DNA of 64,000 nt from Eledone cirrhosa (taxonomy: Eukaryota), in assembly GCA_964016885.1 (NCBI GenBank), contig OZ024756.1:5394001-5458000 (forward strand). Direction: 5' to 3'. Below the pieces are notes generated by a model. It was not told where the DNA came from and searched no databases. It saw only the letters and a list, made by a program, of their open reading frames with translations. Positions 32,863 to 34,806 of the stretch are shown here, piece by piece; within the stretch, counting starts at the first letter, position 1, and each line of letters begins with the position of its first letter. The translations under genes and the position numbers were made by a program.

Positions 32863-34086
32863 CTTATATATACATATATTCTCAATGCTTCAAAAGCCGA
32901 AAATTCGGTTTCGTAAATTGTTTATTTATATATATATATATATAAATAAAGAGTCAGGACCCCGACGGCTGAGCTCCGGCCGTTTCGACAGCTAGATCCG
33001 AACTAAGCCAGCAGTATTAGGACGGTGGGAATCCAGGGATACAGTCCATATATGGGCATACAGTCAAAACCAAAAAAAAGAAATATCAAATCAAAGAATT
33101 CTAAAAATGTGTTGTTTCTTGTCTCTCATGGGGTGCGGTAAATGATTTTGTCATGTACATGGTTAAATTCCGTCATAGCAGTGGCGGTGGTGGGAGGGGG
33201 GCTGTACTGGCCTGTAGAACAAAGGGAAGGAAGTCTGATCTGTAGGTGCCAAGCCGGTTAGGCGTTAAGAGAGAAATCTTTACAACTGTCTTTCATTTAT
33301 AGAGACGGTAACCAGCCATTCAAAGGGATAAGAAAGTAATTCAGCATGTAAGAATCAAGGGAGGTTGTTAGGGTAAAGTAAGTATGCCAGTTCTAACACA
33401 TAGCTAAAGAGCAAAGCATATAGATATTAATACTAATTAAATTCCTAATAAAATAATTTAGTTATCCGATACTCTAAGGCACGGGAAGGGCACCTGAATA
33501 CAGTAATTTACCAGTGTTTTCTTTTATAATGATACACATAAAAAAAGCATGGTTATGTGTTCGGCCGGTTCTATGTATATTTAACACGCACGCACGCGTG
33601 TGTGTGTGTGTGTAAAACTTAATAATTTTTCTTCGAATTTTTGTTATTATTATTATTTGTATAAATATGGAACTTAACTATATTATGAATATCCGCATTT
33701 GACAATGCATATACTGTTGAAACCGGTACCATTATTGAATGCGAAAATATCCTCTTTATAAATAAATAAATGTTTTGATGTTACACTGAAAGAATCTCTT
33801 CAGCATTTTCTACTGAAAAAATCTTTTTCCTTTCTACTATTTGTTTTTATATATATATTAACTCGTGTGTTTCTTTTCTACATTTGATATATATATATAT
33901 ATATTCCTTCTAACTAGCCTCTGTGTCACGTGATTGATTCTTTAGAATCGGCCATTTGACTTGAAGCAGTGAGAATTTCGGTACATAGAATCCAGTCCTC
34001 GCAAGCTGTTCGATCTACCGAATTATTATTATTTTTATATGAGCCGCCAGTATCCGCGCATTGCCTGGAGACTTAACTGAGAATAG

Positions 34087-34168
34087 ACTCCCTGATGACG
34101 CAATGAATTCTCGACAGTTGGATTACGTAACTGTCTTTATCCCATTGCAGAAACTAATTAGTTGGAGT
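34087..34168 (+). ncRNA. Type I hammerhead ribozyme motif (copy 1)
   Basis: actcc-CTGATGA-cgcaatg...cattgca-GAAAC-taatta-GTT-ggagt; palindromic helix III aactaattagtt; C10.1.A11.1 mismatch. Confidence 0.78.
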
Positions 34169-34646
34169 GAAAATTTAAGTAAGTAAAAAATTTAAAAAAA
34201 ACTTTTTTTTTAAAAAAATATTTTCTTATTTTACGTCCTTTATATTATTGTTCTGCATTCTCCTGCATTGAACCACCTAGGTACTATGACATAACCTGTG
34301 TATTTTCTAGCATGGGCGTGCATCTGTGCGCTTATGTTAGTTGATATATTAAATTATCTATATTTATCTCCAAATCACTGATTTGTCGAGCAAACTTGCC
34401 AAAACCACTTCTAAAAAAATTCTTTTTGGGGTGTTAGTAGGCGTCAGTCATCTTACCATCCCATTCCTTCTAACTAGCCTCTGTGTCACGTGATTGATTC
34501 TTTAGAATCGGCCATTTGACTTGAAGCAGTAAGAATTTCGGTACATAGAATCCAGTCCTCGCAAGCTGTTCGATCTACCGAATTATTATTATTTTTATAT
34601 GAGCCGCCAGTGTCCGCGCATTGCCTGGAGACTTAACTGAGAATAG

Positions 34647-34728
34647 ACTCCCTGATGACGCAATGAATTCTCGACAGTTGGATTACGTAACTGTCTTTAT
34701 CCCATTGCAGAAACTAATTAGTTGGAGT
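34647..34728 (+). ncRNA. Type I hammerhead ribozyme motif (copy 2)
   Basis: Identical to 34087-34168, offset by 560 nt. Confidence 0.78.
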
Positions 34729-34806
34729 GAAAATTTAAGTAAGTAAAAAATTTTAAAAAAACTTTTTTTCTTAAAATATTTTCTTATTTTACGTCCTTTA
34801 TATATA

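Follow-up and report, generated by a model that had tools for sequence, protein, structure and literature searches.

Described hammerhead elements and their relation to the locus

Non-coding tandem elements with hammerhead ribozymes, and their link to Penelope-like elements (PLEs), have been published before, and the family analyzed here is another member of this known class. According to a 2026 preprint (bioRxiv 10.64898/2026.07.22.740005), animal retrozymes are derived from PLE pseudo-LTRs and are non-autonomous. The role of the PLE hammerhead and the origin of insertions longer than one unit have been explained in two ways. In the circle model, reverse transcription passes more than once round a circular template (PMC4209133, published in 2014, as well as PMC7229834 and PMC7761336), whereas in 2024 internal initiation on uncut RNA was described in vitro (PMC11167929).

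The window considered below is the whole 64-kb stretch of DNA that was analyzed, which is microsatellite- and repeat-rich and eukaryote-like. Positions 33903-34803 of its plus strand are occupied by a 901-nt non-coding insert consisting of 1.6 head-to-tail copies of a 560-nt unit, which is probably a non-autonomous, PLE-mobilised hammerhead element of the animal non-LTR retrozyme type. Like animal non-LTR retrozymes, it is non-coding and low in GC, its units are joined head to tail and each carry a single type I hammerhead with a dimer-type helix III, copies are many, LTR features of the PBS/PPT type are not evident, and its hammerhead motifs are one unit apart, although the array comprises 1.6 rather than two full units. 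Consecutive hammerhead units of 51-972 bp, the working definition of the 2026 preprint, are what the insert contains; its 560-nt unit is within this range, but beyond the 150-450 bp of the 2020 paper (PMC7229834). Unlike these retrozymes, it carries a PLE-type rather than a canonical ribozyme, and it appears here as a 1.6-unit insert in TA rather than as an array.

The insert shares partial tandem direct repeats, the ribozyme consensus, a 3' end about 80-90 nt past the cut, an AT-rich target and possible 5' microhomology with PLEs bearing hammerheads in their pseudo-LTRs (PMC4209133; Poseidon of Anolis, PMC11167929; Penelope of Adineta, PMC3846280), and the inverted piece with a ~30-nt extension in a sister element (see below) also has its counterpart there. 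It differs from them in having no RT or GIY-YIG ORF and in an extra A before the GAAA box, which is rare in PLEs. Chlamys non-autonomous elements, e.g. MRC1 (PMC8557442), are likewise non-coding PLE dependants with pseudo-LTRs, head-to-tail insertions and a microsatellite bias, but they are green algal, in most cases have no canonical hammerhead, and prefer (CA)n or (C)n as targets. Plant LTR retrozymes (PMC4918200) are similar in having two ~350-nt hammerhead repeats, a non-coding middle and, like the insert, a ribozyme blocked in the predicted circle, whereas their ribozymes are of type III and they possess true LTRs, PBS/PPT, 4-bp target duplications and a Gypsy helper. Since the ribozyme of the TA-flanked insert is of type I, the latter is not a plant LTR retrozyme. 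In an octopus, recently active Penelope-like families have been listed, ribozymes being unmentioned in the accessible text (PMC13282606); this is relevant to the window only if its host is a cephalopod. The literature examined gave no account of the 560-nt family, which may be catalogued in repeat databases, outside this search.

Structure and coding content of the insert

The two near-identical direct repeats of ~340 bp reported in the original prediction were recovered at 33903-34245 (343 nt) and 34463-34803 (341 nt), with 97.96% identity and a spacing of 560 nt. The former is a pseudo-LTR-like, 5'-truncated 0.6 unit, and the latter is a 3' pseudo-LTR-like repeat that ends 80 nt beyond the predicted cut, in a short TA motif merging with the target. 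They differ by three substitutions (33971/34531, 34052/34612, 34194/34754) and two indels in an A/T tract. Near identity had been taken as a sign of recent insertion; the divergence is already ~1%, so that the insert is young in a relative sense only. The spacer between the repeats (34246-34462) is 217 nt long, close to the expected ~220 bp, while the uniqueness ascribed to it holds within the window only: judged by read depth, it is found family-wide elsewhere and is part of the family unit. Its first ~75 nt are homologous to the sister element (6439-6952).

The TA repeats noticed on both sides are a left (AT)9 target run (33887-33904), whose last two nucleotides coincide with the first two of the insert (possible 5' microhomology), and a right (TA)n target run with one interruption (34799-34874). 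In these runs, a target-site duplication would not be discernible.

The absence of a meaningful ORF was borne out. The longest ATG-started ORF round the circular 560-nt unit is 27 aa (both strands), none of the nine read-through frames reaches the Pfam cut-off, and an ORF with telomerase-like RT and GIY-YIG endonuclease is absent between the pseudo-LTRs. Having no ORF, the insert is not an autonomous PLE. The 27-aa ATG-started frame (34103-34186) begins in helix II of the hammerhead, like the ORF of the Anolis PLE, and a splice-donor-like hexamer (34179-34184) sits inside the hairpin that follows the cut; both may be remnants of the place where the parent element began.

Hammerhead motifs

The first repeat contains a type I hammerhead motif at 34087-34168 of the plus strand, with helix I formed by 34087-91/34164-68, the core starting at 34092, helix II formed by 34100-05/34143-48, helix III at 34153-62, and extra bases C 34099 and A 34149. 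As had been predicted, the same hammerhead is present in the second repeat: the motif at 34647-34728 (plus strand, core from 34652) is identical. Both have a 5-bp helix I, a 6-bp helix II with an inner 8-bp stem, and a palindromic 10-nt helix III, and in both helix I is the open helix, which makes them type I and not type III. Position N17 is U at 34163 and 34723; the cuts predicted after these nucleotides are retained from the original prediction, being exactly one unit apart and delimiting a predicted 560-nt monomer or circle (34164-34723, plus strand). The strict hammerhead scan found four sites in the window, and none in any of 100 dinucleotide shuffles.

Several features of the motif had been considered atypical. 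This does not apply to the GUU site, since by our count GUU occurs in 15 and U17 in 24 of the 56 PLE motifs in the supplement of PMC4209133. The presumed C10.1.A11.1 mismatch resolves into the usual extra C and a normal G10.1-C11.1 pair (34100/34148), and what remains unusual is the extra A 34149, which precedes the GAAA box and leaves G12 not directly adjacent to helix II. In the PMC4209133 list, whose columns were not kept in the text used, one of the 56 boxes is written with this A. Among animal non-LTR retrozymes, the axolotl HHR_Amex2 provides a precedent for mispairing at the helix II base, as it cleaves with a U.U mismatch there (PMC7229834); the accessible text of PMC3088659 contains nothing on position 17 or 10.1/11.1. 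The extra A is common to contigs of organisms B and D, and the core at 41605 of the window presents a similar case. In organism B, a contig of depth 66 (run X3) matches 34077-34176 with no differences, and one variant site falls within the motif among the 40 variant rows listed (there are 91 further rows). The unusual traits of the motif are thus family-wide, rather than a result of decay. Dimer-cleaving variants of PLE hammerheads are reportedly the subject of a 2017 paper in RNA Biology, which may cover the variant with the extra A.

Traits given for PLE hammerheads are an extra base between positions 9 and 10.1, the G10.1-C11.1 pair, a short helix I, a long helix II and a palindromic helix III (PMC4209133). 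Judged by its sequence, the hammerhead of the insert is of the PLE type, fitting the consensus in Fig. S3 of the same paper. Rfam yields no hammerhead, whether the gathering score is applied to the window or E<=10 to 33700-35000, but this is a miss of curated models and says little about variants with a long helix II; six weak Rfam matches were dismissed as TA-run or chance matches. The 25-nt ribozyme motif has no matches in metagenome, viral and prokaryote genome contigs.

Sister elements and the shared +80 boundary

The relaxed scan of the window gave seven hammerhead sites, six of them with credible cores. Besides the focal insert, three hammerhead inserts are longer than their unit, with one ribozyme each, and only 33903-34803 keeps two. 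The sister element at 6399-6952 (core 6691, predicted cut after 6764) has a 483-nt unit, TA flanks and a canonical G10.1-C11.1 pair, as well as a 31-nt terminal repeat and a 40-nt inverted piece, both 100% identical; a layout with an inverted piece and a short extension is described for Penelope insertions (PMC3846280, PMC8557442). The insert at 41307-41794, on the minus strand, has a 65-nt direct repeat with a spacing of about 423 nt, and its core at 41605 shows an extra U on either side of helix II and a palindromic helix III. The third one, at 54245-54839 (core 54576), comprises 1.14 units with a 522-nt spacing and a 73-nt repeat at 90% identity; its type I hammerhead has a long helix III, and related fragments lie at 63801-63989. 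One more compact PLE-type hammerhead (55014-55056, core 55018) has no repeat found around it.

The sister element at 6399-6952 is homologous to the focal insert over ~150 nt after the cut (score 66; not reached in any of 300 dinucleotide shuffles, with the maximum of 46), while the other 14 of the 15 pairwise comparisons are at the chance level. The inversion boundary of the sister is located 80 nt past its cut and is homologous to the focal 3' end. The inserts 41307-41794 and 54245-54839 end elsewhere and have no detectable similarity to the focal one.

A comparable arrangement is described for the lizard Anolis PLE, where the cut lies at +26 of the ORF and reverse transcription begins 85-92 nt later, within an internal stem-loop (+111-118), as compared to 80 nt in the focal insert (PMC11167929). 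This system depends on RNA as far as +172; its ribozyme mutants insert as usual, and the protein is needed for cleavage. The required extent downstream of the cut (about 146 nt) is similar to that of the focal/sister conservation (about 157 nt). A fixed 3' start at +80 is likely, given the two homologous boundaries and a rough depth step in runs X1 and X3, but not X23 (see below). The expectation that other copies would be random circular permutations of the unit is weakened by the +80 boundary shared with the homologous sister element.

Distribution of the family in public sequencing runs

Part of the stretch is present in 19 of the 24 runs listed (15 studies, 16 organism codes), five of them with at least half of its words; none of the 24 is on record as RNA, and the set carries no evidence on expression. 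Runs X1, X3 and X6 and the raw-read run X23 were aligned to 33500-34462 (the left flank and one unit), leaving out 14 runs with smaller shares, two more runs of organism A and one run of organism C with at least half of the words.

In X1 (organism A), 2342 contigs fall on the stretch. The summed depth is 1.8e4-4.7e5 in every bin of the unit, with 6.8e4-1.7e5 in the spacer (34292-34456), while the reference depth is 6.5-10.3 for seven of the eight single contigs listed; the gap amounts to three to four orders of magnitude, summed contig depth being distinct from copy number. In X3 it is 13-165 over the unit. The 560-nt unit, including the spacer, has a very high summed depth in organism A and is present in two further organisms.

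One informative contig of X6, from another organism, covers the last 40 letters of the spacer and, in register, the first 235 letters of the repeat. At 33971 as well as at 34052 it shows the family base, so that it matches neither window repeat exactly and each window repeat has one private change, as expected if the two were identical at birth; X1 lacks the private allele at 34052. The private changes (33971/34531 and 34052/34612) are both G to A after T, outside CpG, although these are two events only. An X3 contig spans the opposite, repeat-to-spacer junction, with 26 letters on one side and 41 on the other, which falls short of the 31-letter rule; in the window, the homologous sister element is continuous over this junction. 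As both junctions are continuous elsewhere, the unit is cyclically continuous in the family, unlike in a local duplication. None of the contigs listed spans the whole unit.

Tandem duplication of a solo repeat at the locus, or an error of assembly, would be consistent with the minority family alleles that the repeats share at 34076 and 34238, but it is hardly credible in view of the spacer-to-repeat junction with an ancestral haplotype in a contig from another organism, of the repeat-to-spacer continuity in the sister and of the single private change in each repeat. The reading of the locus as a retro-inserted, more-than-unit, multi-copy element is supported, and both unit junctions are found outside it.

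The layout of repeat, spacer and repeat might also have arisen if a full PLE had lost its interior at this place in a single event, leaving two pseudo-LTRs with a fused remnant, and the depth around the ribozyme, 2-4 times that of the spacer, could include the ends of full PLEs. Such an event is very improbable here: there is no coding trace, and the depth of the spacer itself in X1, together with its continuity in X3 contigs, indicates that the deleted form constitutes a separate family. The family as a whole may have originated by internal deletion of a PLE.

The depth decreases after 34291, from 3.4e5 to 1.3e5 in X1 and from 102 to 61 in X3, while in X23, whose raw reads are restriction-biased, there is hardly any step at the putative end (1836, 1565 and 1521 in three bins). 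No loose end at 34245 is seen among the 24 rows listed (there are 400 further rows). The read or loose ends of X23 at 34021/24, 34109 and 34352/55 were rejected as insertion ends, as they are at AATT sites and have agreement of 0.34-0.39, and were treated as library artefacts; position 34220 probably represents another such variant site.

In organism A, the left flank (33632-33862) is likewise multi-copy (summed depth 1e3-3e4), with depth climbing up to an end at 33858, which passes into TA. It contains an apparent 3' half of a decayed hammerhead (near 33719-33734), and the 901-nt insert landed just past the end of this repeat.

Predicted folding of the ribozymes and the post-cut hairpin

Motif 1 folds with z = -2.99. 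In the predicted fold of the 901-nt precursor, helix II is stable (0.7-0.9) and helix I is unstable (0.02-0.05). The suggestion that the palindromic helix III permits a double hammerhead in cis holds topologically: the predicted probability of cross-helix III pairing of both palindromes is 0.38, and the double hammerhead and the outer site alone are 6.5 and 2.2 kcal/mol above the minimum fold, respectively, compared to 8.0 kcal/mol for two monomers. From these models, self-cleavage of the insert's hammerheads as a dimer appears plausible, though it would probably be slow or assisted by protein or by dimer formation. Cleavage of dimers through a palindromic helix III is reviewed in PMC6765202; PLE hammerheads are reported to cleave poorly, even as dimers (PMC4209133), and one of nine Xenopus dimers cleaved (bioRxiv 10.64898/2026.07.22.740005).

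A 75-nt hairpin is predicted to start exactly at the cut (34164-34238, plus strand; z -2.38, four of 200 shuffles being as good). The 3' strand of helix I serves as its 5' arm, which puts the hairpin in competition with the ribozyme fold. The sister element has a hairpin of the same fold formed by different base pairs (6765-6836, z -1.65). Among seven stretches compared, the post-cut hairpin is found in both focal copies and the sister element, is weak at 41605 and is absent in three. When the unit is folded as a circle, helix I is predicted to be kept closed by the hairpin (probability 0.04 for helix I and 0.7 for the hairpin base), whereas most animal retrozyme circles are predicted to leave the ribozyme free (PMC7229834). 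In two related families, the hairpin thus connects the cut with the end of the insertion, an arrangement of which the accessible literature contains no description; it is a concrete candidate for a cis-signal.

Proposed insertion mechanism

The whole chain of events that we propose, to which we give about even chances, is as follows. An autonomous PLE would supply endonuclease and reverse transcriptase in trans, the endonuclease would nick a (TA)n run, and the nick would prime at the short TA motif behind the hairpin. Copying would start at the fixed internal site, 80 nt beyond the predicted ribozyme cut, and run upstream through more than one unit of an uncleaved, linear head-to-tail transcript, stopping after 901 nt, with the 5' end joined by the two nucleotides of possible microhomology. 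A bias to (TA)n is reported for Naiad and discussed for Neptune PLEs (PMC8557442). Speaking against this reading, the Anolis PLE starts without target homology (PMC11167929), while the focal ends merge with TA.

The template must contain more than one unit upstream of the start, and either an uncut tandem transcript or a ligated 560-nt circle would serve. Two points speak for the uncut transcript, namely the weakness of the ribozyme and the outcome of the single biochemical study of a PLE: on the lizard PLE, internal initiation on uncut RNA in vitro, proceeding without hammerhead cleavage, equally gives partial tandems (PMC11167929). A linear template can only keep or shorten the copies, and long tandem source loci are therefore needed; none was seen.

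The same element and PLE machinery could also have used a 560-nt circle, produced by double self-cleavage and host ligation and copied for 1.6 rounds from the +80 start, a version that we hold as a tentative and less probable one. It would account for two intact motifs exactly one unit apart and for four longer-than-unit inserts in 64 kb, since only a circle can lengthen copies, while a cut linear monomer leaves only 80 nt upstream of the start. In the predicted folds the cis dimer is feasible, and the closed helix I of the circle would stop re-cleavage; RNA circles have been demonstrated for coral, mussel and axolotl retrozymes (PMC7229834). It is opposed by the poor cleavage of PLE-type hammerheads and Xenopus dimers mentioned above, and by unprocessed RNA being the dominant substrate of the lizard PLE (PMC11167929). 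The folding energy of the circle was discarded as evidence, its z of -3.5 being inside the range of ten control stretches of the window (+1.4 to -4.8).

As to the helper of the preferred, uncut-transcript reading, no autonomous PLE partner was detected among the 27 window ORFs scanned with Pfam (out of 73 ORFs of at least 100 aa, low-complexity ones being left out), two of which match a reverse transcriptase family. This RT fragment (20123-20871) is frameshifted and matches PF00078 with E 1e-10; by its motif we take it to resemble site-specific non-LTR elements, a non-PLE class. This non-PLE-looking fragment would fit a spread of the hammerhead repeat by another microsatellite-targeting non-LTR RT, or else the repeat may have been excised from satellite arrays and reinserted at the DNA level. 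LINEs are left open as helpers in PMC7229834, and local array amplification is also invoked by the 2026 preprint. Such routes are improbable here, as the ribozyme is of the PLE type, the sister has an inverted piece and a short terminal repeat, the insert has no poly-A or 3' repeat tail of its own, and the +80 boundary is shared.

Being small and intact, and alone among the four longer-than-unit inserts in keeping two ribozymes, the 901-nt copy is a useful test object for the choice between the 2014 and 2024 views. A more far-reaching and quite unlikely version is that the family is a very high-copy, protein-free Penelope parasite whose RNA must circularise: cleavage would free the helix I strand for the hairpin, which would both switch the ribozyme off and mark the start 80 nt downstream. 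If this were true, only the ligated 560-nt circle would give that start unlimited template behind it, and several such families in one genome would form a compact natural system for the origin of Penelope partial tandems from circular RNA.

Other features of the window

A weak Rfam tRNA match (32719-32792, 30.3 bits) upstream of the insert is not called by ARAGORN, which finds no tRNA in the window, and is probably a SINE head; a stretch near 41900-42050 bears some resemblance to a cephalopod SINE. A 624-nt sequence is present in two inverted copies (5638-6261 and 19321-19942). Tandem minisatellite arrays are located at 1744-3340 (variable 33-45-nt units), 38118-38909 (66-nt units) and 46120-46972 (80-nt units), and the 66-nt unit forms part of a dispersed repeat that is common in the window.
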